Assembly: GCA_964601615.1 (NCBI GenBank)
Contig: CAZRNZ010000002.1
Location: 207,431-271,430, forward strand
Source: an uncultured Candidatus Saccharibacteria bacterium
GTDB taxonomy: Bacteria; Patescibacteriota; Minisyncoccia; Phycocordibacterales; UBA918
Reading direction: 5' to 3'
Length of the DNA stretch: 64,000 bases
Below, piece by piece: positions 102 through 58,502 of this stretch. The notes below the pieces were generated by a model that searched no databases, was not told the DNA's origin, and saw only the letters and a list, made by a program, of their open reading frames with translations. Made by a program: the position numbers and the translations under genes. Position 1 is the first letter of the stretch; every line of letters begins with the position of its first letter.

Positions 102-557
102 ATGGTAAAGAATACGTCAAAAAGAGGTTTCACCCTGATCGAGCTCCTAGTAGTAATCGCTATTATTGGTATCTTGGCTTCAGTAGTACTTGCTTCACTT
201 AACTCCGCTCGTCAGAAGGGGGCTGATGCATCTATTAAGTCAAACCTAAACAACGCTCGTGCTCAAGCTGAGTTGTATTACGATGGTCGTACTCCTAATA
301 GTTACCATGTGAGTGCTAGTGAGAATGTTTGTTCAAGTACTTCAGGTATTGCTAATATGATTACCGGTGCACGAAATGCAAATGGGACAGCAGCTAATGT
401 TGTTTGTGGATCAGAGGCTGGATATTGGGCTGCTAAGGCGTTGCTAGTTTCAAATACTGCACATTGGTATTGTGTTGACTCAAGTGGTCAAGCAAAGACG
501 TATACTAGTACTGCATGGACTTCTGGTGCAGTAACAGCTTGTCCAGCTGGTTCTTAA
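102..557 (+). CDS. Type IV major pilin / pseudopilin with class III signal peptide
   Basis: N-terminus KRGF|TLIELLVVIAIIGILA is a prepilin cleavage/methylation motif (G-1, E+5). 151 aa with C-terminal Cys pair. Own strong terminator follows. Confidence 0.8.
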   Translation: MVKNTSKRGFTLIELLVVIAIIGILASVVLASLNSARQKGADASIKSNLNNARAQAELYYDGRTPNSYHVSASENVCSSTSGIANMITGARNANGTAANVVCGSEAGYWAAKALLVSNTAHWYCVDSSGQAKTYTSTAWTSGAVTACPAGS

Positions 558-578
558 AAATTAAAAAGTCGCACAAAA

Positions 579-605
579 TGCCCCGCAATGCGGGGTGTTT
601 TGTTG
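579..605 (+). terminator. Rho-independent terminator after major pilin
   Basis: CCCCGC-AAT-GCGGGG hairpin followed by a T-run. Confidence 0.7.
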
Positions 606-617
606 TATAATTAACCC

Positions 618-1445
618 ATGCCTGAATGGTACATAATTTCAGTTGTTGCATTGTTTGGATTGATTATCGGTAGTTTTCTCAATGTAGTTATTTATCGACT
701 ACATACAGGACGTTCGCTTAATGATCGGTCGCATTGCTTGTCTTGTGGTACTACTTTAAATTGGTATGAATTGTTTCCTGTAGTTTCTTACTTAACTCTA
801 CTTGGCCGTTGTCGTACTTGTGGTGCATTTATTCCGTATCGTTATGCTTTGGTGGAAATATTAACAGCTGTCACTTTTGTTATTTGTTACTTATTTACCT
901 CTGATATTGTAACTTTTGTTTTGGTAGCGACTCTAATGTCAGTTTTGATTGTGGGATTGGTTTATGATCTCTATCATATGATTATTCCCGATGAAGTTTC
1001 AGGGTGGGCGGCGGCTTTAGCTGTCGCCATAGTTGGTTGGCAAGCTTATCTGTCTAGTGACTGGTTATATGTTGTATTTAATGCACTTTCTGGAGCTGCC
1101 ATTATTTTCTTAGTTTTTTGGAGTTTGTGGTTTTTTTCTGGAGGTAGAGCATTTGGTTTTGGTGATGCAAAACTTTCTGTATCGCTTGGGATGTTAGTTG
1201 GTTTGTCAGGAGTTTTTTCTTTGATGGTATTTTCATTTTGGATAGGAGCAATATTTAGTATCCTACTAATCTTGTTACAAAAAATTATCCGCAAAAGTTC
1301 AGGAAAATTTGGTTGGGGTCATGTTAATATGAAAAGCGAAATACCGTTCGCTCCGTTTATGATTGTTGCGTTCGTAGTTGTTTACTTCTTTAGAGTAGAT
1401 GTAATTCAACTCATCAGTAGTTTTGTAGAAAAAACATGGCTATAG
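618..1445 (+). CDS. pilD: Prepilin peptidase (A24 family)
   Basis: N-terminal CxxC...CxxC zinc motif (CLSCG..CRTCG). Polytopic membrane protein with a GFGDAKL motif carrying the catalytic Asp. Confidence 0.85.
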   Translation: MPEWYIISVVALFGLIIGSFLNVVIYRLHTGRSLNDRSHCLSCGTTLNWYELFPVVSYLTLLGRCRTCGAFIPYRYALVEILTAVTFVICYLFTSDIVTFVLVATLMSVLIVGLVYDLYHMIIPDEVSGWAAALAVAIVGWQAYLSSDWLYVVFNALSGAAIIFLVFWSLWFFSGGRAFGFGDAKLSVSLGMLVGLSGVFSLMVFSFWIGAIFSILLILLQKIIRKSSGKFGWGHVNMKSEIPFAPFMIVAFVVVYFFRVDVIQLISSFVEKTWL

Positions 1446-2020
1446 TCAAAAAAACAGTAATAAATTTTAGACAGAAAGAAAGAAACCTACATAGTGGTTT
1501 TTCTATTTTGGAAGTACTTATTACCGCTGCCATTATTGGAGTAATAACCGGACTTATTACATTGCAATATGGTTCTTTTAATAATCTTATCTTGTTGAAG
1601 AATCAGGCATATCAAGTTGCGCTTGATTTGCGTGAGACACAGACCAGATCACTATCGGTATCTGGTGCAAATGCTGCTTTTAGAAAGCCTTATGGAATTC
1701 ATTTTGAAAGAGATAATCCTTATCAATACATTTTGTTTCTAGACGCTAATCCAGAAAATGGTCTATATGACTTAGGAGAGGAGATAGAGGTAAGGAAACT
1801 TGATTCACGTTTCAGATTGGGTCGTCTTTGTAGTGGTTCTACCGAAAGTTGTACCACAGTTAGTGCCATGTCTGTAGTTTTTCGTCGACCAAACTTTGAT
1901 GCAATTATGAATGCTGGTGCAATAGCTAATGCTGCAGTGGAAATCACTACAATTAACGGAGATGGAGAAGACGTTCGTGCTGTAAATATAAATGCTGCTG
2001 GTCAGATAACTATTGAGTAA
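1436..2020 (+). CDS. Minor pilin / pseudopilin (prepilin-type N-terminus)
   Basis: HSGF|SILEVLITAAIIG motif with E+5. Confidence 0.65.
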   Translation: MAIVKKTVINFRQKERNLHSGFSILEVLITAAIIGVITGLITLQYGSFNNLILLKNQAYQVALDLRETQTRSLSVSGANAAFRKPYGIHFERDNPYQYILFLDANPENGLYDLGEEIEVRKLDSRFRLGRLCSGSTESCTTVSAMSVVFRRPNFDAIMNAGAIANAAVEITTINGDGEDVRAVNINAAGQITIE

Positions 2021-2025
2021 TATTT

Positions 2026-2685
2026 ATGTTGTTTTTTAATAAGAAAAATCTTAGAGGAGGTGAGCAGAAAATTGCAAAGCAATTTTCTGCTCAAAAAAAT
2101 AATCATGGTTTTTCTCTTATTGAACTGTTGGTTTCAATGGCTTTATTTATTGTAGTGCTAACTATGGGTATCGGTGCATTGATGGTCTTGATTAGTTCCA
2201 ATTCAAAAGCTCAAAATATTCAATCGGCAGTAAGTAATATTCAATTTGCTATTGACAGTATGTCTCGTGAGATACGTACAGGAAATGGATATTTTTGTTC
2301 AAGTAGTACTGAAGCAACTGGTGATTACACTCAAGTACAGGATTGTAATAAGGGTACTTATTTATCTATTGTGGAAGGTGGTAAAAGTCTGACTTCAGGA
2401 GGAAGTGCTAATCCTAATAGACGTATAGCATATAGATACAACACTGCTTTAAATGCAATTGAACGAAAGATAGGTAGTGGTTCGTGGGTTAGACTAACTG
2501 ACTCAGCAGTTTCTATTAATACAATGCATTTCAATGTAACTAATTCTGCTGGTAAAGATAGTTCTTCCAATAATTTTCAACCAACTGCAACGATATTTAT
2601 TAATGGGGAAATTATTGGGATAGGGGATACTTCAACCGAATTTACTCTCCAAACCACAGTTACGCAAAGAACTCTAGATTTGTAA
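2026..2685 (+). CDS. Minor pilin / pseudopilin
   Basis: NHGF|SLIELLVSMALF prepilin motif. Confidence 0.65.
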   Translation: MLFFNKKNLRGGEQKIAKQFSAQKNNHGFSLIELLVSMALFIVVLTMGIGALMVLISSNSKAQNIQSAVSNIQFAIDSMSREIRTGNGYFCSSSTEATGDYTQVQDCNKGTYLSIVEGGKSLTSGGSANPNRRIAYRYNTALNAIERKIGSGSWVRLTDSAVSINTMHFNVTNSAGKDSSSNNFQPTATIFINGEIIGIGDTSTEFTLQTTVTQRTLDL

Positions 2686-2690
2686 TATTT

Positions 2691-3266
2691 ATGAAATACA
2701 TCAATAACAAAAAAGGTGGATATTCTTTGGTTGAAGTGCTTATTTCTATTACAGTTCTTTTGATTGCTCTGGTTGGTCCCTTAACTATTGCTTACACTGG
2801 TTTGAAAAGAGCTAATTTCTCCAAGGAACAAACATTTGCAGTTTTTCTAGCGCAAGAAGGAGTTGAATCTGTTGTGAGATTACGAGAAGACTCTGCCCTA
2901 AATGCTTCTTCTTACGGTAATTTGTCTGAGGTTTGGACTACAAACTTCAATGCTGTGAGTAATCGTTGTCAGATTGGAAGTAATAATTATTGCGGAGTGC
3001 GCTTAACTGATGATGGCAGTTTTTCTCAAAATAATATTTATCAGTGCAGCGGCTCTAATTGTTTAATGAGATATAATGATGGCGATAGGGTTCCATACAA
3101 ACAAGGTGTTTCTGGTACAGAAACACAATTCACTCGTCAATTACAAATTACTGTTTCTGGTAATCAGTTTGCCAGAGTAAAATCTATTGTTTCTTGGGGT
3201 CCTGCAACTTCAGATAAGATTGAGCTAGAAACTTATGTCTACAATACTTACTATGAGCCTAATTAA
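2691..3266 (+). CDS. Minor pilin / pseudopilin
   Basis: KGGY|SLVEVLISITVLL prepilin-like motif. Confidence 0.6.
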   Translation: MKYINNKKGGYSLVEVLISITVLLIALVGPLTIAYTGLKRANFSKEQTFAVFLAQEGVESVVRLREDSALNASSYGNLSEVWTTNFNAVSNRCQIGSNNYCGVRLTDDGSFSQNNIYQCSGSNCLMRYNDGDRVPYKQGVSGTETQFTRQLQITVSGNQFARVKSIVSWGPATSDKIELETYVYNTYYEPN

Positions 3267-3834
3267 AAAAACAAAAGAAAAAGGTTTTGCTTTACTAATT
3301 ACCCTTGTGGTAGTGAGTGTGGTTCTGGCAATAGGTTTGTCGTTATTGTTTGTTACTACTAAACAATATTTACTAGCTATTACAGCTACTGAGTCAGAAG
3401 AAGCTTTTCATGCTGCACAGATAGGGCTTGAATGTATGAGATATCATAGAGTGCAGCCTAATACTAGAGATGCTTTTCTTCGTGATAGCACAAATACTCC
3501 ACCCACTGTTTCTTGTGCTGGAGTTACATCAAACATTTTGGACAGTTCACCAATTTTAGGTACTGGAGGGATAGGTGGGGTTTGGATGTATCGTTATCGT
3601 TATAGGTTTGATTTAGGTTCTAGTTGTGTAGATACTAGTTTGTATATTGCTGATTACAGGGATTCTAGTCTGGATTCACCTTATAATATATCAAGTTATA
3701 GTGAGGGATTAAGCCAAATACAATGTATGGCTGGTACCATTTGTACTGTAGTTTTTTCTCGTGGTTATAACAGACCTTGTGGACAGTTGGATTCAATATT
3801 TACTATTCAGCGCGAAATAACTGTCGAATTCTAA
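3235..3834 (+). CDS. GspK/PilX-like pseudopilin (no E+5)
   Basis: EKGF|ALLITLVVV N-terminus lacks Glu+5, as in GspK/PilX-type minor pilins. Confidence 0.55.
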   Translation: MSTILTMSLIKKTKEKGFALLITLVVVSVVLAIGLSLLFVTTKQYLLAITATESEEAFHAAQIGLECMRYHRVQPNTRDAFLRDSTNTPPTVSCAGVTSNILDSSPILGTGGIGGVWMYRYRYRFDLGSSCVDTSLYIADYRDSSLDSPYNISSYSEGLSQIQCMAGTICTVVFSRGYNRPCGQLDSIFTIQREITVEF

Positions 3835-13996: not shown

Positions 13997-14680
13997 ATGA
14001 TCTATTTTGATAAAGTTTCCAAGTGGTACAACGGCGGCGAGTCTGTAGCACTTGAAGATATTACTTTCCAAGTGGCGCCGCACGAATTTGTTTCTATTGT
14101 TGGTCACTCTGGTGCTGGCAAGTCTACTTTATTAAAAATGCTTATTGCAGAAGACTCACCTTCAGAAGGGAGTGTGTTTTATGAATCTCTTGATATTCAT
14201 AAAATCCCTCGTGGTCGTCTACCCAAATTTCGTCGCAAAATCGGTACTGTTTTTCAGGATTTTAAACTACTTCCTCATAAAACTGCTTTTGAAAACATTG
14301 CTTTTGCTATGGAGGCAAATGGTCGTTCTGATGAAGAGATTGCTGAGAACGTACCTCAAGCACTTTCTTTGGTGGACTTGGATGATAAGGCTTTTAATTT
14401 TCCTCACGAGCTATCTGGTGGTGAAAAACAGCGTGTAGCTATCGCTAGAGCGATTGTAAATCAGCCAGATATTATTATTGCCGATGAGCCAACAGGAAAC
14501 CTTGACCCAATTGCTACTTATGAGGTGGTACAGATTCTTCGTAAGATTAACGACCTTGGTACGACTGTAATTATGACAACCCACAACAAGGGTGTGATTG
14601 ATGAGCTTGGTCGCAGAGTTATCACTATGGACGGTGGTCGAATAGTGAAAGATGACTCTAGTGGTAAATATGTAATGTAG
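13997..14680 (+). CDS. ftsE: Cell division ATP-binding protein FtsE
   Basis: Walker A GHSGAGKST and ABC signature LSGGEKQR. Upstream of ftsX. Confidence 0.9.
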   Translation: MIYFDKVSKWYNGGESVALEDITFQVAPHEFVSIVGHSGAGKSTLLKMLIAEDSPSEGSVFYESLDIHKIPRGRLPKFRRKIGTVFQDFKLLPHKTAFENIAFAMEANGRSDEEIAENVPQALSLVDLDDKAFNFPHELSGGEKQRVAIARAIVNQPDIIIADEPTGNLDPIATYEVVQILRKINDLGTTVIMTTHNKGVIDELGRRVITMDGGRIVKDDSSGKYVM

Positions 14681-14698
14681 TTTTAATTTTGTTTTGTT

Positions 14699-15619
14699 AT
14701 GTGGGTAGCATTTAAGAGAATAGTAGTATCGGGAGCAGTAGGATTTTGGCGAAATGGTTTTGTTTCGTTGGCATCTGTTTTTGTAATGACAATTGCTTTG
14801 TTCGTGATTGGTGCAATCATCATGATTGACCAATTGCTTGGAGCTTCATTACAGCAAATTGAAAGCAAGGTTGATATTAACGTTTACTTTGCAGTGGAAG
14901 CAGTAGAAGAAGATATGCAGGCTGTGAAGTCTCGACTAGAGGCTCTACCTGAAGTTGCTGCTGTAACATATACTTCTAGAGAAGAAGCAATTGTTGCTTT
15001 CCGTGAAAGACATCGTGGCGATGAACTCACTATTCAGGCTCTAGAAGAACTTGGCGACAATCCTCTTGGAGCATCTTTGGCAGTAAGGGCTGCTTCAACC
15101 GACCAGTACGAAAGTATCGCTCGTTTCCTTGATGAACAGCAAGCTCAAGAGTCTCCCCAGTCTCCAGTAATTGACCGTGTTAACTTCGTTAAAAACAAAG
15201 AAGCAATTGAAAAGCTTGCTTCAATTATTGACGTGGTTGAACGTGCCAGCGTTATCACTATGGTGATATTAATTGTGGCTGCAGTAGTAATTACCTTCAA
15301 TACAATCCGCTTAGCAATCTACACAACTCGTGAGGAAATTGCAGTTATGCGTCTGGTGGGTGCTTCAAACACATTCATTCGTGGTCCATTCATGTTGCAG
15401 GGAATAATGTACGGCGCAATTGCTGGTATTCTGGCTTTGATAATAATGTATCCGATTCTTCTCTGGATTGGTCCAGGTACAGAGGCTTTCTTCCAGTTCA
15501 ATATCCTTAGCTACTTCCTAAGCAACTTCGGTTACGTATTCTTGGTTATTGTTGGATCTGGAATTGTACTAGGATTAATTTCTAGTGCTATGGCAGTTTC
15601 TCGATACTTGCGAGTTTAA
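14699..15619 (+). CDS. ftsX: Cell division permease-like protein FtsX
   Basis: 4-TM topology with a large periplasmic loop; follows ftsE. Confidence 0.85.
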   Translation: MWVAFKRIVVSGAVGFWRNGFVSLASVFVMTIALFVIGAIIMIDQLLGASLQQIESKVDINVYFAVEAVEEDMQAVKSRLEALPEVAAVTYTSREEAIVAFRERHRGDELTIQALEELGDNPLGASLAVRAASTDQYESIARFLDEQQAQESPQSPVIDRVNFVKNKEAIEKLASIIDVVERASVITMVILIVAAVVITFNTIRLAIYTTREEIAVMRLVGASNTFIRGPFMLQGIMYGAIAGILALIIMYPILLWIGPGTEAFFQFNILSYFLSNFGYVFLVIVGSGIVLGLISSAMAVSRYLRV

Positions 15620-22768: not shown

Positions 22769-23605
22769 ATGGGGAAGTTTACAAATGTAGTTTTTATAAT
22801 ACTGCTTATTTTAACCGTCGTTGCAGTTTATTGGTTTGTCTTTAAAGATAAACCAGTTGTCAATAATGAATTAAAAACCTTGTCGGGGACTGTCACTTAT
22901 CGTGAAAGAATCGCCTTACCAGCAGGTTCTATTGTGACGGTGGAGATTAATGATGTGTCACGTGCAGATGCTCCTGCTCTTAATATTGCTTCAACTGAAA
23001 TTATTACTACTGGAGAAAATGTACCAATTCCTTTTGAAATAAATTACGATGCTTCTAAGTTGGATTCCAGAATGTCTTATAGCGTTTCTGCTAAAATCAT
23101 GACTGATGGTCAGCTGCGTTTTATTACTGATACACACAATTCTCTTCTAGATGAAAGTGGTAATCCAATAACATCAATTGATTTACTGTTGGTATCTGCA
23201 CATAGTCAGCTATTAAATACTTCTGATAAAGAGAATAACTTACCAGAACATCAGTCTATGAAGTTGCAGGAAAGTACTGATGAATTAAATGGTCGCAGTT
23301 ATCGTCTATACTCTATTGATGGTGAGATATTGGATAAAGAAACAAATTATATTGTAAGTTTTTCCGAAGGACGTGTGGCGGCAAAATTTTGTAACAATGT
23401 GGTAGGTGATTATATTTCTAATAATGGCATAATCAAGGGTTTGATGGTCTCTACCCTGATGTATTGTGCTTCACCGACAGATATTATGAAAATTGAAGAT
23501 CAGTTCGCTGTGATGATGAATGACGGTGCTAAATTTACAATAAATAAAAACACCTTGTCTCTTGAAAATGGAGATGGTGTTTGGGTTTTGCAATTAACTA
23601 ACTAG
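22769..23605 (+). CDS. YbaY-like lipoprotein domain + META/HslJ domain protein
   Basis: N-terminal TM. Middle region YbaY-like; C-terminal region (LNGRSYRLYSIDGE...) META-like. Confidence 0.55.
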   Translation: MGKFTNVVFIILLILTVVAVYWFVFKDKPVVNNELKTLSGTVTYRERIALPAGSIVTVEINDVSRADAPALNIASTEIITTGENVPIPFEINYDASKLDSRMSYSVSAKIMTDGQLRFITDTHNSLLDESGNPITSIDLLLVSAHSQLLNTSDKENNLPEHQSMKLQESTDELNGRSYRLYSIDGEILDKETNYIVSFSEGRVAAKFCNNVVGDYISNNGIIKGLMVSTLMYCASPTDIMKIEDQFAVMMNDGAKFTINKNTLSLENGDGVWVLQLTN

Positions 23606-45563: not shown

Positions 45564-46736
45564 CTAAGTATTTAAGCTTTTTAAGCGAGTAGCCAACTTA
45601 TTTATACTGATTGTTTCTTGATTTTTACCAGACATGTCACGCAAAATGATGGTGTTATCTACAAATTCTTTTTGACCGATAATAAGAGTGTATTTTGCTC
45701 CGCTCTCTTCAGCTTTGCGAAGTTGTTCAGATAATGAGTCGGTTGCCAAATTTTGGTTTACTGAAATACCAGCTTTTCTAAGATCGTTCAGAAGGAGTAA
45801 TGCACGAACTTTTGGTGCAAAACCAATGTGTATTAAGTGAATCGGAGACTTTTTAGTTGACATTTTTGGTAGCCGAGTGGGGAGGTTTTTACCTTTTAAA
45901 GTAATTACCGCTCCTGTTGCTGGAGTATTTTTGTTACAATGCTTTTCTAGCAAAGTGCCATAACGACCACCTCGAATTTTAAATGGCTGATTTTCTACTT
46001 GGTAACCATTTTGATCTACTAATTCAAAAGCAAAAATTGCGTCATGATAACAGCCGTAATGACCAATTAATTTTGGATCAATTTCATAAGGAGTCTCACT
46101 CATGTCCAAGAATTCTACAATTTCACGAAAATGTTTTCGGCTTTGATCACTCAGGTATTCCATTGGACTTGGACTTTTAAAAGCCAGGTCGTGATTTTTT
46201 TCAATTAAGTGAAGTAGGGCAGAAGAAACATGTTCTTTCATCAGTTCGCGGGCATTAGGTGGCATTTCATCCATCTTTTTGCGGAAGAATGTAGTGAGTT
46301 CCCGTGTGTATCTTTGTTGAGAGTCATTATCACCAAGAGAGTTTATCTTTACCAAATGATCGCTATATCCAGCGTCATTTAAAAATGATTTTATGGTTTG
46401 AATCAAAATAGATTCGGCAATACTTTTCTGGACACCATATATCTGAAAAACAACTGATGCTTCATTAGTGCGAGGAGTTGATTCAATATTGTAATAAAAA
46501 ATTGGTTCTTCAATAGCATGAAGTTTGTTCGATATGTAAGTGTTTACACCTCCTGTAATGAGACCAAAAGCACCGTCTTGACGACGAATATCAGCTTTTG
46601 CCATGGTTGCACCCTTAACGCTTTTGCATTCGACACATTCCTTTCTCTTGCGCCAGTTTTCATCAGAACGGAAACCAAAGTGTTCCGCTGTATTTATTGC
46701 TTGTTTTAAAAATTCATTAACGCTTATATCAGTCAT
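45564..46736 (-). CDS. hisS: Histidyl-tRNA synthetase (divergent N-terminus)
   Basis: HisRS-specific GGRYGTL (GGRYDGL-like) motif, KINSLGD motif, class IIa anticodon-binding C-terminus. Confidence 0.6.
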   Translation of the reverse strand: MTDISVNEFLKQAINTAEHFGFRSDENWRKRKECVECKSVKGATMAKADIRRQDGAFGLITGGVNTYISNKLHAIEEPIFYYNIESTPRTNEASVVFQIYGVQKSIAESILIQTIKSFLNDAGYSDHLVKINSLGDNDSQQRYTRELTTFFRKKMDEMPPNARELMKEHVSSALLHLIEKNHDLAFKSPSPMEYLSDQSRKHFREIVEFLDMSETPYEIDPKLIGHYGCYHDAIFAFELVDQNGYQVENQPFKIRGGRYGTLLEKHCNKNTPATGAVITLKGKNLPTRLPKMSTKKSPIHLIHIGFAPKVRALLLLNDLRKAGISVNQNLATDSLSEQLRKAEESGAKYTLIIGQKEFVDNTIILRDMSGKNQETISINKLATRLKSLNT

Positions 46737-47364
46737 TTTGATTGTTTGTATAGTTACCTGGCAGAATTGAAAAATCGGCAGGAGGAAATAATCTGATAAA
46801 AGCTCGACCGATAATCTTATCTTTGTTTAGTGCACCCCAAGATCTTGAATCTGAACTATGGTCACGATTATCACCCATAACGAAATACTCATCTTCTCCT
46901 AAGATGGTGGTTTGATTGGTGTAATTTTCCATTGAGGCAATGTATGGTTCTTCTAGTAAGAGTCCATCAGGATTTTCTTCATTAAAAACAACTACCTCAG
47001 AGCCGTCTATGTAGATAGTTTCACCTGGAAGTGCAATTATGCGCTTGATGAAAAACTTCGAAGGATCATTTGGATAACGGAAAATAATTACTTCACCGCG
47101 CTCTGGAGAATTGAATCGATAGTTTAACTGGTCAACAATTAGGTATTCATTGTTATGGAAAGTGTTTTCCATTGATGCGCCAGAGACAATAAATGGTTGT
47201 GCAATGAACCAACGAATTGGTAAGACAATAATAAGTGCAATTAAAGCAAAATTAACAATCTCGACAAAAACAGAAGGTTCTTTTTGTTTTGTAACTGGAG
47301 TTTCTTGATAATCTAAATCAGAAACTATTGGAGTGTTGTTTTTATCTTGATCGTGTTGACTCAT
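46729..47364 (-). CDS. lepB: Signal peptidase I
   Basis: S26 motifs VSGASMENTF (Ser) and GDNRDHSSDSR (Lys box region). Confidence 0.85.
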   Translation of the reverse strand: MSQHDQDKNNTPIVSDLDYQETPVTKQKEPSVFVEIVNFALIALIIVLPIRWFIAQPFIVSGASMENTFHNNEYLIVDQLNYRFNSPERGEVIIFRYPNDPSKFFIKRIIALPGETIYIDGSEVVVFNEENPDGLLLEEPYIASMENYTNQTTILGEDEYFVMGDNRDHSSDSRSWGALNKDKIIGRAFIRLFPPADFSILPGNYTNNQND

Positions 47365-53111: not shown

Positions 53112-53145
53112 AAAGCGGCGGAGACTTTGTCTCCGCCGCTTTTCC
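53112..53145 (+). terminator. Rho-independent terminator
   Basis: 14-bp stem AAAGCGGCGGAGAC/GTCTCCGCCGCTTT. Confidence 0.75.
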
Positions 53146-53184: not shown

Positions 53185-53544
53185 ATGTCGATAATGAGTC
53201 TGTTGTATATTTTTTTATCAATTTACTTAGTGCCGTTTTTGTTTGCACTAGGATTGATATTTTTTCTATATGGTTTTTTTGAATATTTTATTATCGGTAA
53301 GGAAGGTGATGAAGAAAGATCACAACATGGTCGCGAACTATTTCTCAAGTCAATTGGCTGGTTTGTTGTTGGTATAATTGTTTACTTAATTGTTTTTGCT
53401 ATTGGTTGGATTTCTTCCGCAAACTTGTCTTCGTTGTTTGGTATACCAAATTCTAATCCTAGTGGGGATATGGATGGGAATGCAGGAGTTCAAATTGATC
53501 GAGGTACAGGTGTATTACAAGTTCCTAATGTTCCAACTCGATAA
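53185..53544 (+). CDS. Small two-helix membrane protein, paralog 1 (VirB2/TrbC-like candidate)
   Basis: TM1, charged loop (GKEGDEERSQHG), TM2, tail ending VPNVPTR. Shares architecture with the four ORFs at 55447-56943. Confidence 0.45.
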   Translation: MSIMSLLYIFLSIYLVPFLFALGLIFFLYGFFEYFIIGKEGDEERSQHGRELFLKSIGWFVVGIIVYLIVFAIGWISSANLSSLFGIPNSNPSGDMDGNAGVQIDRGTGVLQVPNVPTR

Positions 53545-53550
53545 TTTAAT

Positions 53551-54087
53551 ATGATAGAAGATAATTTCTTTTCGCCTGAAATTGTGGCGACACATTTTCA
53601 TTTAAGGGCTGGTGATAGAGTGGCAGACTTTGGTGCTGGTACTGGTAATTTTTCTAAAGTCCTTTCAAAGCTAGTGGGTGATGATGGTAGAGTTTATGCT
53701 TGTGAAATTCAAAAAGATTTAGCTGAGACACTTTCTGAAAATATTAGAAAGGAAAGAATGATTAATGTTGAAGTTTTATGGTGCGACATTGAAGAAGACT
53801 GTGGTACAAAAATCAGAGAGGGTTCATTGGATGCTGCAGTGTTGGTTAATACACTCTTCCAGTTTGAACAAAAAGAAATAGCCATGCAAGAAATTTATCG
53901 CACACTTCGTAGTGGTGGAAGGTTACTTATGGTTGATTGGTCAGAATCTTGGGGAGGACTTGGTCCTCAGCCAACAAATGTTGTAACGGAACATATGGCG
54001 ATAGATCTGGCTGAGACTGCAGGATTTACTTTTGAGCGCCAATTTGTGGCTGGCAAACATCATTACGGACTAGCTTTTCGAAAATAA
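53551..54087 (+). CDS. Class I SAM-dependent methyltransferase
   Basis: Motif I VADFGAGTGNFS. Methyltransferase type 11-like. Confidence 0.75.
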   Translation: MIEDNFFSPEIVATHFHLRAGDRVADFGAGTGNFSKVLSKLVGDDGRVYACEIQKDLAETLSENIRKERMINVEVLWCDIEEDCGTKIREGSLDAAVLVNTLFQFEQKEIAMQEIYRTLRSGGRLLMVDWSESWGGLGPQPTNVVTEHMAIDLAETAGFTFERQFVAGKHHYGLAFRK

Positions 54088-54138
54088 ATATATCTTTTCC
54101 TTTTCATATTTTTCTATTTAAATCTATAATAGTTATAT

Positions 54139-55443
54139 ATGGAAAATATGAGACCTTTTCAAATAGGTTTACTTATAGGTTTTGCTTTGATTGCTTTGGT
54201 TAGTATTATCATCATTGCTTCTTATCAAGGTATTAGTGGTGGCGCTACAAGCGCTTATGGTTCTCGGGTTTTAATTTGGGGAACGTTTAGTGAATCAGCT
54301 TTCTCTTCAGTTTTGTATGATCTTTCTAGGCAAGACAAAGGACTTCAAGTTGTGCAATATGTTCAAAAGAATCGAAATACTTTTGAGTCGGAATTAGTAA
54401 ACGCTATTGCTGAAGGTCGTTCGCCAGATGCGATTATCTTAGATAGTGAGTACTTATTAACACTTCGTACAAAAATTCAACCAATTTCTTACAATTCATT
54501 TCCACAAAGGACCTTAAAGGATAACTACCTTGATGGTTTTGAAATATTTGCTCTTTCAGATGGATTGTATTCAATTCCTTTTGCGGTAGATCCAGTTATT
54601 ATGTATTGGAATAGAAGCATTTTATCTTCTGGTGGTTTCTCACAACCGCCAGCAACTTGGGAGTCTTTAACAAATTTGGTAGAAAATATTACATTACGTG
54701 ATGCAACCAGAAACATTAGTCAGGCAACTGTTGCGTTTGGTGAGTATTATAATGTTATAAATTCAAAGTCACTTCTGTTAACCTTGCTTCTACAGTCAGG
54801 TAGTAGAATGATAGAAGAGGGTCAGTCTCGGTATACAGTTGTTATAAATAACGATGCCAACAACAGTAGTCGTCGTCCATTAACTTCAACCTTGCAATTT
54901 TATGTAGAGTTTAGTAATCCTGCCAGTCCTCTTTATTCTTGGAATAAGACTTTTCAAGATGATTTGGTGACTTTCTTAGGAGAAAGATTGGCTTTGTATT
55001 TTGGTTATGGTAGTGAATCTAAGCGTATAGCTTCTCAAAATCCTAATCTCAATTTTGATGCTGTCGGCGTACCTCAGGGTGCTGAAGCCATAACCAAACA
55101 AACTTATGGTAAGTTTTATGGCTTCTCTATTTTAAAGGCAAGTCCAAATAGACAAGGGACTTATCAAGCACTCTTGGCTATCTCTGGCTACAACTCAAAT
55201 GTGGCTATGGCAAATAATCTATCGCTAGTTCCGGCTTATCGAGCAGCTATAACTGCTGGAAATAGCGATGCTGTTATGCAGACTGCTTATTCACAAGCAC
55301 TTATTGCTAGAGGTTGGCTTGATCCAAACCCCTCTAAGAGTAGTGAAGCTTTTGGTGTTACTATTAATGAAATTCTTTCAGGAAGGAATAGTGTTGGTGT
55401 TGCTACTTCAGATTTGATTAGAAGATTAGAATTGGCCTTTTAG
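54139..55443 (+). CDS. Membrane-anchored extracellular solute-binding protein (family 1-like), orphan
   Basis: N-terminal TM then an SBP-like fold with PATWESL (P.TW.E) motif. No permease or ATPase adjacent. Confidence 0.6.
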   Translation: MENMRPFQIGLLIGFALIALVSIIIIASYQGISGGATSAYGSRVLIWGTFSESAFSSVLYDLSRQDKGLQVVQYVQKNRNTFESELVNAIAEGRSPDAIILDSEYLLTLRTKIQPISYNSFPQRTLKDNYLDGFEIFALSDGLYSIPFAVDPVIMYWNRSILSSGGFSQPPATWESLTNLVENITLRDATRNISQATVAFGEYYNVINSKSLLLTLLLQSGSRMIEEGQSRYTVVINNDANNSSRRPLTSTLQFYVEFSNPASPLYSWNKTFQDDLVTFLGERLALYFGYGSESKRIASQNPNLNFDAVGVPQGAEAITKQTYGKFYGFSILKASPNRQGTYQALLAISGYNSNVAMANNLSLVPAYRAAITAGNSDAVMQTAYSQALIARGWLDPNPSKSSEAFGVTINEILSGRNSVGVATSDLIRRLELAF

Positions 55444-55446
55444 TTT

Positions 55447-55839
55447 ATGAAAAAAATAAAACTAGCGATAATAAATATTTTATACTTATCAGTACCAGCT
55501 TTTGTTTCTGCAGAAAATACTGGTGTAACTGATCGTGGTGCTAATACTGGCGTAACTGATGGTGGTGTGGTCGGTATTCATTTACAGAATCCTCTTGCTA
55601 CCACTACTATTACTGAATTTTTGCAAGAGATACTGGCAGTAATAATGATTTTTGCTGTACCGTTGATTATCTTTATGATTATTTACGCTGGTTTTATGTA
55701 TGTTACTGCCCAGGGTAATGAGTCAAAGGTAAGTAAGGCGCATAAGGCTTTGCTTTATGCTGTAATTGGTGGATTATTAATTCTAGGTGCTAATATAATA
55801 TTAGCTGTAATTCAGGGGACTGTTGATGCCTTTAGATAA
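55447..55839 (+). CDS. Small two-helix membrane protein, paralog 2 (VirB2/TrbC-like candidate)
   Basis: Signal peptide (PAFVSA|EN), TM1, loop AQGNESKVSKAHK, TM2. Confidence 0.45.
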   Translation: MKKIKLAIINILYLSVPAFVSAENTGVTDRGANTGVTDGGVVGIHLQNPLATTTITEFLQEILAVIMIFAVPLIIFMIIYAGFMYVTAQGNESKVSKAHKALLYAVIGGLLILGANIILAVIQGTVDAFR

Positions 55840-55844
55840 AATTT

Positions 55845-56099
55845 ATGCCAAGAAACTTTGCCGAGTTGGTTGATGTGTTTTTAAATATATTGTCGCTCAT
55901 TATTCCACTCATTTTTTCGTTAGCTTTGCTTTTTATAACCTGGAAGATAATTGATGCTTGGGTGCTAAATGCTGGTGAGTCACGCAAGATAGATGAAGGT
56001 AAACAGTATGCTTTTTGGGGTGTTTTAGTTTTGGTAGTAATGTCTAGTATCTGGGCGATTTTACAAATACTCAGAAGTTCACTTTTTGGAACATACTAA
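55845..56099 (+). CDS. Small two-helix membrane protein, paralog 3
   Basis: TM1, loop NAGESRKIDEGKQ, TM2. Confidence 0.4.
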   Translation: MPRNFAELVDVFLNILSLIIPLIFSLALLFITWKIIDAWVLNAGESRKIDEGKQYAFWGVLVLVVMSSIWAILQILRSSLFGTY

Positions 56100-56187
56100 A
56101 TTCTATCCACAGTATAGGTGACTTTACTTATTTATCGCGATATAATTTACGTAACTTATATATTAAGTTATTAATTTAATAATATTT

Positions 56188-56598
56188 ATGAATACAATGA
56201 AGAACGTTTTAGCTAAGACAGGTGATGCATTGAAGATGGCTTTTGCTGCTGGTGCTATTTGGTCACTTGCTTTTATACAGGCATTTGCCGATACCGCTAC
56301 AAGCACCGGTGATTTTGGTGAAATAAATAATTTCATCGGTAAGATAACTAGCTTTATTAACAACACAGCTATTCCACTTATTTTTGCTATCTCTTTGGTA
56401 GTGTTTATTTGGGGTATGTTTATGTTCTTCATTAAGGATGGTGCGGCAGAAAAAGAGCAGGGAAAGCAATTGGCTATTTGGGCAGTTGTAGCATTTGTGT
56501 TGATGGTATCTATTTGGGGTATTGTAAACCTTATTGCTGGTGGACTTGGCTTTAGTGGTCAGGGCATAAACAATATACCAACTGTACCAACACGTTAA
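56188..56598 (+). CDS. Small two-helix membrane protein, paralog 4 (VirB2/TrbC-like candidate)
   Basis: Signal peptide (AFA|DT), TM1 containing FAISL as in RP4 TrbC, loop KDGAAEKEQGKQ, TM2, tail ending IPTVPTR. Confidence 0.45.
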   Translation: MNTMKNVLAKTGDALKMAFAAGAIWSLAFIQAFADTATSTGDFGEINNFIGKITSFINNTAIPLIFAISLVVFIWGMFMFFIKDGAAEKEQGKQLAIWAVVAFVLMVSIWGIVNLIAGGLGFSGQGINNIPTVPTR

Positions 56599-56655
56599 TT
56601 AATTGGTGTATAACATTCAGACTGTATTTATACAGTCTGTAGTTAGATACTAATT

Positions 56656-56943
56656 ATGATTAATAACAACATAGATTCTCCTGCTACAGATGTCGCGCGT
56701 GGTTTTTTGTTTAGATTAAACGAAGCAATACTCTATCCACTTATTACCTTAATGATGGCAATTGCTTTGGTAATTTTTCTCTATGGTTGTTTCTTATTTC
56801 TTTCCAATGCTGGGAATGAATCAGCCAGATCAAAAGGGAAGCAACATATGATGTGGGGAATTGTTGGTATGTTGGTGATGATTTCTGCATATGCAATCTT
56901 AAATATTGCAGCAGGCACTTTCGGAATTGATGTACCAAGATAA
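56656..56943 (+). CDS. Small two-helix membrane protein, paralog 5
   Basis: TM1, loop SNAGNESARSKGKQ, TM2, tail ending IDVPR. Confidence 0.45.
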   Translation: MINNNIDSPATDVARGFLFRLNEAILYPLITLMMAIALVIFLYGCFLFLSNAGNESARSKGKQHMMWGIVGMLVMISAYAILNIAAGTFGIDVPR

Positions 56944-56956
56944 GTTGAATATAAAG

Positions 56957-56990
56957 AAAAAGCCCCTTGTCGAAGACAAGGGGCTTTTAG
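56957..56990. terminator. Bidirectional terminator
   Basis: AGCCCCTTGTC-GAA-GACAAGGGGCT hairpin. Confidence 0.7.
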
Positions 56991-57008: not shown

Positions 57009-57443
57009 CTAACAATCGGATGCATCAAGGACTTTAACAGTCACCAGTTCTTTTTGACCGGAAATTGGCGTGATGACATTTTCCCGAAAACCATTGCTAG
57101 ATCTGATGTCGAACCGTCCGTCTGGACTGATGTTCAGGCAAGTGCGATTATTGGGATTGATGAGGGTGACACTACCAGAAACATAGAAAGTCTCGGGAAT
57201 ACCACGCCTCATCACCACTGTACCATTTTCCACAGTTCTAACTCCGGCAACCTGTCCTCCTTGGGAGAAGTTCAGGTTGCCGGTGAAGAAACTGTTGGCA
57301 AAGTAGATGCCGGCGATAGCCAGAATTACGATCGTAGCAACCTTGTAGTATTTCTTGTAGGTCGCACGATCATCGCTTCGAGAAGCACTCGCACCAGTGT
57401 TGGCATTCTTGTTGAGGCTTGAAAGGCTGTTTGTGTCAGACAT
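57009..57443 (-). CDS. NfeD-like membrane protein (OB-fold) partner of the SPFH protein
   Basis: N-terminal TM plus a beta-rich C-terminus; immediately downstream of the SPFH gene on the same strand. Confidence 0.45.
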   Translation of the reverse strand: MSDTNSLSSLNKNANTGASASRSDDRATYKKYYKVATIVILAIAGIYFANSFFTGNLNFSQGGQVAGVRTVENGTVVMRRGIPETFYVSGSVTLINPNNRTCLNISPDGRFDIRSSNGFRENVITPISGQKELVTVKVLDASDC

Positions 57444-57446
57444 TTG

Positions 57447-58502
57447 CTACTGCTTTCCTTTTTGTTCGCTGCCTCCTTTCTTGTTTCCTTGCATTGCTGC
57501 CAGGAATGGAATTGAAGCAGTCAGAGCTTTGGCGATTTCAGGGTCGAGCTTGTCCAATCCCGAGATGTTGAATTCATGGGCAGACAAGTTCATCTTGATA
57601 TTTTCGCTGGCGGCCATGAAGCGGTCGCGAGCATGGTTGAAATCAGTCTGCGAAACCTTGCCGTCGGCAATAGCTTTACGAACCTTCTTGATATCGTCGT
57701 AGCCGAGCATAAGAGCTGTGCCGTTGGCAATAATTTCCGCTTCGGTCAGACCAGTCATGGTCTTTTGAAGTTCTTCAGAAGGCATGATTTCGGAGATAGT
57801 GATATCGCCGACTACAACACCGAATCTTTTTTCAAAGTCAGTTACTGGAGAGTTTGCACTCTCCTTGAACTCAGCACGTAGATAAGCGTTTATTACATCA
57901 ACCGAATTCAGAGCTTCGATGATGCTGTTTTTCTTCACGACGCGCTGAATGATTTCAGACTTGATAAGATCAGTGATATCGCTAGCAACAGAAGCGACGC
58001 CGCCAAGATAGGCAACAGTTTTTCTGATGTCAGCACGCAGGCGAACCGAACCTTTGATCTTGAGATTTCCCTTGGACGTCTGCACATCCACGGCAAAATT
58101 TTCACTTGTTTCTTCTAGAGAAATATTGCGACCAGATTCACGTCCTTCCCATGGATAAGAAATGTGGAGGCCAGGGCCGTAGACCACATAAGCTTTCCGA
58201 TCTTCCTGGCCGGAAGATGGATTAAGAAAGGTCTGCAGTTGGTCGATTGTGACGAAGGCACGGAAAGTGCCGACTTTCACAATGAACTTATGCAAAGTCT
58301 GGGTTATAACAAAAGCTTGAAGAAGCAAGCCGGCGAAGAATCCGATTGCCGCATTGCCAAACCAATTGCCGGAGATGGCAGAAGTGATCATGGGAATGAA
58401 GCAGGTGAGAATCAGCCAGCCAAAAAAGACAAGCTGACGACTATTGCGATCACGCTCGACGAGCGAATCTGTAGCATAGATCTGGAGATCATTGTCAGCC
58501 AT
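57447..58502 (-). CDS. SPFH/band-7 (stomatin/flotillin-like) domain protein
   Basis: N-terminal TM then an SPFH-like alpha/beta domain and a coiled-coil C-terminus. Confidence 0.6.
   Translation of the reverse strand: MADNDLQIYATDSLVERDRNSRQLVFFGWLILTCFIPMITSAISGNWFGNAAIGFFAGLLLQAFVITQTLHKFIVKVGTFRAFVTIDQLQTFLNPSSGQEDRKAYVVYGPGLHISYPWEGRESGRNISLEETSENFAVDVQTSKGNLKIKGSVRLRADIRKTVAYLGGVASVASDITDLIKSEIIQRVVKKNSIIEALNSVDVINAYLRAEFKESANSPVTDFEKRFGVVVGDITISEIMPSEELQKTMTGLTEAEIIANGTALMLGYDDIKKVRKAIADGKVSQTDFNHARDRFMAASENIKMNLSAHEFNISGLDKLDPEIAKALTASIPFLAAMQGNKKGGSEQKGKQ

Follow-up and report, generated by a model that had tools for sequence, protein, structure and literature searches.

A gyrA-proximal operon conserved in Paceibacteria encodes diverged VirB2-like pilin-family proteins together with an extracellular binding protein

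We analysed a 64-kb stretch of DNA (hereafter the window; positions 207,431 to 271,430 of contig CAZRNZ010000002.1, deposited as an uncultured Candidatus Saccharibacteria bacterium) that carries a tandem array of five small membrane-protein genes, here called p1 to p5. A preliminary description made from the sequence had proposed that they encode pilins of the VirB2/TrbC type. The five open reading frames (ORFs) are all on the forward strand and lie at the coordinates reported there (Table 1). Two further genes fill one gap of the array, such that the order reads p1, a methyltransferase gene, a gene for an extracellular solute-binding protein, p2, p3, p4 and p5, with intergenic gaps of 3-88 nt. 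These seven genes constitute one transcription unit that lies directly downstream of gyrA and is enclosed by two hairpin terminators; a promoter scan gave matches that were no commoner than in shuffled sequence (16 versus 16.2), and we assign no promoter. The remainder of the window is ordinary chromosome, encoding LigA, GatA, MurJ, LepA, a class I tRNA synthetase, TsaD, FtsZ/FtsA, IF-2, GyrA and 13 tRNAs. A mobile-element origin was considered and rejected, as the surroundings are housekeeping genes in conserved order, among which no integrase, relaxase or repeats were seen.

The five proteins share a single architecture, in agreement with the preliminary description. In Kyte-Doolittle profiles each has two hydrophobic stretches with a short charged loop between them, and alignment of the five gives the loop consensus xG(N/D/x)E...GK(Q), followed by a W or Y at the start of the second helix. 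The N-termini of p2 and p4 appear by eye to be signal peptides with AxA-type sites, also as described (MKKIKLAIINILYLSVPAFVSA/E in p2 and ...SLAFIQAFA/D in p4, the slash marking the site), and p1, p3 and p5 begin directly with the two-helix core. In p2, residues about 23-42 between signal peptide and pilin core (window 55513-55572) form a tandem peptide repeat, NTGVTDRGA-NTGVTDGG. The tails PNVPTR, PTVPTR and DVPR were correctly read in p1 (...VPNVPTR), p4 (...IPTVPTR) and p5 (...IDVPR), respectively. An AlphaFold2 model of p5, with a mean predicted local distance difference test score of 81.6, consists of a helix at residues 9-50, a loop, and a second helix at residues 55-88. Although paralogues are only 23-34% identical to one another, a profile hidden Markov model (HMM) built from any four recovered the fifth from among the 748 stop-to-stop ORFs of the window, at E-values between 4.6e-8 (p1) and 4e-17 (4.3e-12 for p3), with the best unrelated ORF at E >= 0.1. 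The model built from all five matched nothing else in the window, including the membrane proteins MurJ, TspO, DUF2177 and FtsX. We conclude that p1 to p5 are genuine, anciently diverged paralogues, and that each is a helical-hairpin membrane protein.

Table 1. Features of the transcription unit and its boundaries (window coordinates; a slash within a sequence motif marks the putative signal peptide site)
Feature	Coordinates	Strand	Description
hairpin, upstream unit boundary	53112..53142		GC-rich 14-bp stem (14 pairs, 9 G-C), just 3' of gyrA, terminator-like on both strands
p1	53185..53544	+	119-aa two-helix pilin-like protein without signal peptide; long tail L-x-V-P-N-x-P-T-R; closest subclade only
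methyltransferase	53551..54087	+	178 aa, cytoplasmic, class I, S-adenosylmethionine-dependent
binding protein	54139..55443	+	434 aa, membrane-anchored extracellular solute-binding protein, MalE/oligosaccharide type (SBP_bac_8)
p2	55447..55839	+	130 aa; putative signal peptide (VSA/E), NTGVTD(R/G)G repeat linker, two-helix core; C-terminus ...QGTVDAFR
p3	55845..56099	+	84 aa, minimal two-helix protein without signal peptide; C-terminus ...LRSSLFGTY
p4	56188..56598	+	136 aa (133 aa from alternative start); putative signal peptide (AFA/D), two-helix core; tail ...NNIPTVPTR
p5	56656..56943	+	95-aa two-helix protein without signal peptide; C-terminus ...AAGTFGIDVPR
hairpin, downstream unit boundary	56958..56988		GC-rich 14-bp stem, between p5 and convergent 57009-57443(-)
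SPFH/Band-7 membrane protein	57447..58502	-	Band_7 36.6 bits; convergent with array; frequent neighbour in related loci

Three of the five proteins exceed the curated gathering cut-off (26.6 bits) of the Pfam family T4SS_pilin, PF18895, with scores of 35.3 for p2, 29.1 for p4 and 29.2 for p5. The score of p3 lies under this cut-off at 19.1 bits, and p1 has no Pfam match. When the p1 orthogroup was compared by hhalign with the other paralogues, p1 having been removed from the target, the two aligned with 97.6% probability (E 3.7e-12), and eleven p1 orthologues share an invariant VP(N/D)xP. As judged from these profile comparisons, p1 to p5 belong to the Patescibacterial family PF18895, with p1 and p3 joined to it via profiles; in the literature its members are named the "VirB2-like pilins" of Patescibacteria (PMC12102498, PMC10633639). 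The original assignment to TrbC/VirB2-type pilins therefore stands with respect to the T4SS_pilin family and falls short with respect to canonical TrbC/VirB2, PF04956, whose cut-off of 27.9 bits was reached by none of the five (p2, 22.3 bits, E 1.6e-4; p4, 11.9 bits; no match for p1, p3 and p5). Orthologues of p2 likewise display sub-threshold similarity to PF04956. A 96-sequence profile of the family showed no relationship to TrbC of R751 (0.35% probability). The pentapeptide FAISL in p4, to which the earlier assignment had appealed as one said to occur in RP4 TrbC, is no evidence either way, being a hydrophobic pentapeptide in a membrane helix; R751 TrbC has FALSI at that place. For four of the five ORFs the best match in NCBIfam was the Mbov_0395 pilin-like family NF045849, at 34.2 (p5), 26.9 (p2), 23.5 (p4) and 18 bits (p1), all under its cut-off of 40.

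The family is very large, comprising 36,284 representative clusters at E <= 1e-3 in a library of 1.8 billion proteins. Many of its top matches are single polypeptides in which 2-8 two-helix pilin domains follow one another in tandem, separated by short linkers. For example, P0141 contains eight domains in 820 aa, P0130 seven in 606 aa and P0125 three in 336 aa, and each copy has its own AGGN(E/D)E...KK loop. These are candidate natural polyproteins that might also be gene-calling artefacts; they suggest that several pilin domains work together, in fixed stoichiometry.

Each member of the array has its own line of descent. Orthologues of p3 (48 database sequences) are 65-84% identical to it and all 81-88 aa long, those of p5 (63 database sequences) are 50-79% identical, and those of p2 57-71%. 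At four related loci, p1 to p5 are 36-78% identical to their orthologues; among the neighbouring gene products, the methyltransferase shows about 54-65%, the binding protein 42-59%, Pth 46-56%, an aminotransferase 52-64% and GyrA 79-88%. Evolution of the pilin-like proteins is no faster than that of ordinary genes nearby. Moreover, the order of the types is kept across distant lineages, as seen in the succession of C-termini ...GTVxAF, ...LRSSxFG, a Pro-rich tail and ...AAGTFGxxVP. By sequence comparison, then, the five paralogues represent five orthogroups, each conserved separately and holding a fixed place in the order. The C-terminal VPxR proposed as a conserved feature of the array holds up for part of it, with L-x-V-P-N/D-x-P invariant in the p1 group and tails of the form IPxxPTR (IQNIPsxPTR) in p4 orthologues. 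It does not extend to the p2 and p3 types, which end differently, nor strictly to p5, whose orthologues vary in the last residue (R, K, Y, G, Q, N or S), and the motif fades in distant lineages. p1 is restricted to about 11 of the closest loci, in which the gap between gyrA and the methyltransferase gene is widened to 426-942 nt, where other loci typically have about 100 nt; p1 therefore joined the array later.

The orthologues come from Candidatus Kaiserbacteria and other Paceibacteria. In a broad clade of Paceibacteria that includes Kaiserbacteria, Taylorbacteria, Zambryskibacteria and their relatives, the unit belongs to the core chromosome and is passed on vertically. Many records of metagenome-assembled genomes (MAGs) titled "uncultured Candidatus Saccharibacteria bacterium" (L013, L020, L022, L026-L033 and others in our numbering of loci) share the full synteny of the Paceibacteria type, namely S26, Pth, S1, gyrA, methyltransferase, binding protein and pilins, with binding proteins up to 61% identical to that of the window. 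The Saccharibacteria label of such syntenic MAG records is probably generic or wrong.

The two genes that interrupt the array were listed with it in the preliminary description, the binding protein as an orphan. The methyltransferase matches Methyltransf_11/31/25 of Pfam at E about 5e-14; in NCBIfam it has only generic UbiE/ArsM/PCMT-like matches, far under their cut-offs, and falls into no specific subfamily. The binding protein scores 46.4 bits against SBP_bac_8 (cut-off 27), its remote matches in the PDB are sugar- and maltose-binding proteins (best E 1.5e-10), and the alignment of its family shows, at the N-terminus, a hydrophobic anchor together with an invariant M-x-N-x-R-P-F. Scanning species-representative genomes with this binding-protein alignment revealed 330 loci, of which the best 80 were examined for genomic context. 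In these the binding protein ranges from 64% down to 32% identity, and they come from Kaiserbacteria, Taylorbacteria, Zambryskibacteria and other Paceibacteria. Wherever the flank suffices among these best 80 loci, the binding-protein gene is followed by 4-8 pilin-like genes, the typical order being gyrA, methyltransferase, binding protein and then 4-8 pilin-like ORFs in tight or overlapping spacing. The gap between the binding-protein gene and the first pilin-like gene has a median of 3 nt over 73 loci, 13 of which have overlaps of 1-4 nt. Between the methyltransferase and binding-protein genes the gap has a median of 9 nt, and in 18 of 75 loci the two genes overlap by 4 nt. The methyltransferase gene is at its expected position in 71 of 75 readable loci. 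It is missing from four more distant ones (L062, L085, L086 and L089), where the binding-protein gene starts 45-108 nt after gyrA and the pilin array is kept, and is therefore tied to the array less tightly than the binding protein. Far from being incidental, the methyltransferase and binding protein are conserved, tightly operon-coupled partners of the array in about 75 species. Neither the unit of the window nor the flanks (10 kb) of the 80 related loci revealed an ABC (ATP-binding cassette) permease or ATPase gene that could serve the binding protein; FtsE/FtsX (13997-15619) is the sole ABC pair of the window.

Downstream of the array, and convergent to its end, lie the SPFH/Band-7 gene of Table 1 and, preceding it, a gene for a small membrane protein (57009-57443, reverse strand). 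SPFH proteins occupy the equivalent position in many related loci (for example L039:14197-15414, L046:14113-15543 and L087:13722-14717), with very divergent sequences. It is uncertain whether the SPFH protein is a functional neighbour of the array, for instance as a membrane-microdomain scaffold, or reflects mere synteny. Upstream, the only S26 peptidase of the window is a signal peptidase I (46729-47364, reverse strand), located 6 kb from the array within a conserved housekeeping block. TraF, the pilin-maturation peptidase of RP4, belongs to the same peptidase family as signal peptidase I. The window enzyme resembles a LepB with a housekeeping role, and the window showed no further copy.

Two other regions of the window deserve a brief description. 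At 102-3834, type IV pilus genes form a cluster that has no relation to the VirB2-like proteins; it includes four proteins with the prepilin motif for N-terminal methylation (102-557, 1436-2020, 2026-2685 and 2691-3266), a PilD-type prepilin peptidase (618-1445) and an unassigned ORF (3235-3834). The 278-aa protein encoded at 22769-23605 joins a META domain to a lipoprotein domain that is YscW-like (type III secretion chaperone family), an unexpected pairing in a Patescibacterium.

Tandem arrays of VirB2-like pilins are already on record in Patescibacteria. A search of 3,035 Patescibacteria genomes with PF04956 and PF18895 by Quinonero-Coronel et al. (2025) yielded 441 arrays of 2-11 pilins with about 25% identity within arrays (PMC12102498). 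The same study reported VirB4 in 2,417 of the 3,035 assemblies and pilins near virB4 in 1,135 of 1,948 pilin-bearing assemblies (PMC12102498); pilins thus lie away from virB4 in about 42% of them, and distance from virB4 is normal for the family. In the saccharibacterium Southlakia epibionticum, Wang et al. (2023) found six PF18895 genes, SEML1_0014-0019, to be essential and to lie beside a type IV secretion cluster (PMC10633639). In addition, genes for T4SS pilins are among the most highly expressed unknown genes of three cultured Patescibacteria that parasitise methanogens (PMC10936435), and a 2025 review highlighted the Patescibacterial VirB2-like pilins as the only ones in monoderms. The main text of PMC12102498 makes no mention of gyrase, of solute- or substrate-binding proteins or of SPFH, and a full-text literature search combining Parcubacteria, pilin and solute-binding protein returned no paper describing an association between array and binding protein. 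What is new here is a conserved pilin array that lies apart from virB4 and shares its operon with genes for a binding protein and a methyltransferase.

Comparison with known systems places the locus more precisely. It resembles the Patescibacterial arrays typified by SEML1_0014-0019 in its Pfam family (PF18895), protein size (about 84-185 aa), two-helix core with or without signal peptide, chromosomal location in a monoderm, ultrasmall host, and tandem divergent paralogues (2-11 at about 25% identity there; five at 23-34% here, with one gap filled by two non-pilin genes). Unlike the S. epibionticum array, it is neither in nor beside a type IV secretion cluster and forms an operon with methyltransferase and binding protein directly after gyrA, an architecture kept in at least 80 species-level Paceibacteria genomes. 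With canonical TrbC, VirB2 and TraA (TrbC of RP4 and R751, VirB2 of Agrobacterium) the proteins have in common the small helical hairpin, the short basic loop and, in p2 and p4, a putative signal peptide. They differ from these in their sub-cut-off PF04956 scores, in the lack of a match to R751 TrbC, in the three of five ORFs without signal peptide, in the monoderm host, and in that neither VirB4 nor VirB6 nor a maturation peptidase of the TraF type was identified next to the window array. The Mycoplasma Mbov_0395 protein (NF045849) is likewise a small two-helix pilin-like protein, from a monoderm conjugation system; however, all window scores are below 40 bits, and the array has housekeeping surroundings with no context of an integrative and conjugative element (ICE) or of conjugation. 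Finally, the 434-aa binding protein is like the MalE-cluster binding proteins of ABC importers (SBP_bac_1/8) in passing the SBP_bac_8 cut-off and in its remote relation to solved sugar binders, but its anchor is an N-terminal helix, not a lipobox; it has no adjacent permease or ATPase, and is invariably followed by pilin-like genes.

We favour, with moderate confidence, the interpretation that the array encodes distinct subunits of one heteromeric envelope structure, made of T4SS_pilin-family proteins, specified by an operon shared with the binding protein and probably dependent on type IV secretion. Following the positive-inside rule, the charged loop of each hairpin would probably face the cytoplasm, with both termini directed outward. 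The five proteins would be non-interchangeable subunits of a short pilus, stalk or conduit. By analogy to the essential six-pilin array of S. epibionticum, a type IV secretion system of the monoderm type (VirB4/VirB6/PrgI), encoded at another place in the genome, would probably pull them out of the membrane and assemble them. The binding protein, co-translated with them, may act as their extracellular partner and bind glycans or other ligands at the surface of the cell or at the host interface, and the methyltransferase may be an accessory factor in the cytoplasm that some lineages can do without.

Several observations weigh against this interpretation. A Pfam scan of all window ORFs of at least 110 aa, except obvious overlapping shadow ORFs, found no VirB4-, VirD4-, VirB6- or PrgI-like gene in the 64 kb, which are part of a 278-kb contig; this is consistent with the earlier remark that VirB4 and VirD4 ATPases are absent from the window. 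In none of the 80 related loci does an ATPase of VirB4 size lie less than 10 kb from the module. Published VirB4 calls (PMC12102498 Table S1) are available for six related drafts that carry the module, and these divide into three positive and three negative as compared to a background of about 80% positive (our one-sided binomial p about 0.10). The label "pilin" itself rests on remote homology, as no pilus of the T4SS_pilin family has ever been visualised. Fold searches return generic helical hairpins only and are non-specific for such a fold, and when the PDB was searched with a profile of the family alignment, a designed membrane helix (E 0.32) was the sole match. Synteny extends over the whole region in the clade, such that adjacency alone is weak evidence of a functional link; we base the link between methyltransferase, binding protein and pilins on the operon-like spacing and gene overlaps instead. 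The roles proposed above for the binding protein and the methyltransferase are ones that we only infer.

The strongest rival takes up the first of these observations. It holds that the envelope module is independent of type IV secretion and needs no VirB4 ATPase, being either a stable heteromeric membrane complex or a structure that self-assembles or depends on Sec/YidC, and that it works directly with its anchored binding protein, for example in non-ABC uptake, sensing or attachment. We regard this as unlikely. In addition to the separation from virB4 and the three VirB4-negative drafts, the translational coupling of the binding-protein gene to the first pilin-like gene speaks for it, as do the polyproteins of up to 8 domains, whose roughly 16 membrane helices resemble a fixed membrane assembly more than a polymerising monomer. 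On the other hand, the genomes scored VirB4-negative (PMC12102498 Table S1) are incomplete drafts of 0.63-0.90 Mb in a group where about four in five assemblies encode VirB4, the location of pilins away from virB4 is commonplace in Patescibacteria, as described above, and in the only genetic study the T4SS_pilin family formed part of the type IV secretion cluster and was no less essential. A related and bolder proposal, which we put forward as speculation and consider distinctly unlikely, is that the gyrA-proximal operon specifies an undescribed envelope apparatus of Paceibacteria, made up of the methyltransferase, the anchored MalE-like binding protein and 4-8 distinct VirB2-like hairpin proteins. 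In it a heteromeric pilin-like conduit would surround the binding protein, or be tipped by it, and the apparatus would capture host-derived glycans or other nutrients, possibly without VirB4; the Pro-rich tails (LxVPNxPxR) might then be docking or modification sites.

The preliminary description had instead suggested that the five paralogues form a variable set of surface filament subunits or adhesins. On such a reading they would be interchangeable major pilins or adhesins that provide antigenic or host-range variation in the manner of the VirB2 paralogues of Bartonella and Anaplasma. The low identity between paralogues, a copy number that varies from 4 to 8 among lineages, and tails that differ in length and sequence beyond the core would all be compatible with such a role, which has also been raised in the literature for Patescibacterial arrays. 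The conservation data point the other way: every array position has its own conserved orthologue, with the type order fixed over a wide phylogenetic range, and orthologues (36-78% identical) resemble each other more closely than do paralogues (23-34%). Across species, p3 reaches 84% and p5 79% identity, which is comparable to ordinary genes at this locus. The array shows neither recent duplicates nor repeats nor signs of recombination cassettes, and the multi-domain fusions argue for joint rather than alternative use. Interchangeable pilins are therefore a highly improbable account of the array. Lastly, the idea that the ORFs encode small hydrophobic proteins of unrelated origin, such as holins or bacteriocin immunity proteins, or are spurious, and look pilin-like only through their membrane-helix composition, could draw on their short, very hydrophobic sequences, on the inconsistent automatic names of homologues (TRAP permease, multidrug pump) and on the non-specific structural search, but it is effectively refuted by the curated Pfam cut-offs passed, by a family HMM that leaves the other membrane proteins of the window unmatched, by PHROGs and Pfam searches without any holin, bacteriocin-immunity or phage functional match, and by ORF lengths and motifs kept in more than 80 species.

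These findings bear on how ultrasmall, biosynthetically poor Patescibacteria obtain what they need from host cells. In the single species for which this was tested, type IV secretion genes and the VirB2-like array proved essential. In a large Paceibacteria clade the pilin-like proteins now turn out to be fixed, individually conserved and co-encoded, often through overlapping genes, with an extracellular binding protein of the sugar type. The locus thereby offers, in a defined seven-gene unit, the testable hypothesis of a heteromeric structure coupled to ligand binding. Should the module prove to be independent of VirB4, it would separate a family of "pilins" from type IV secretion.

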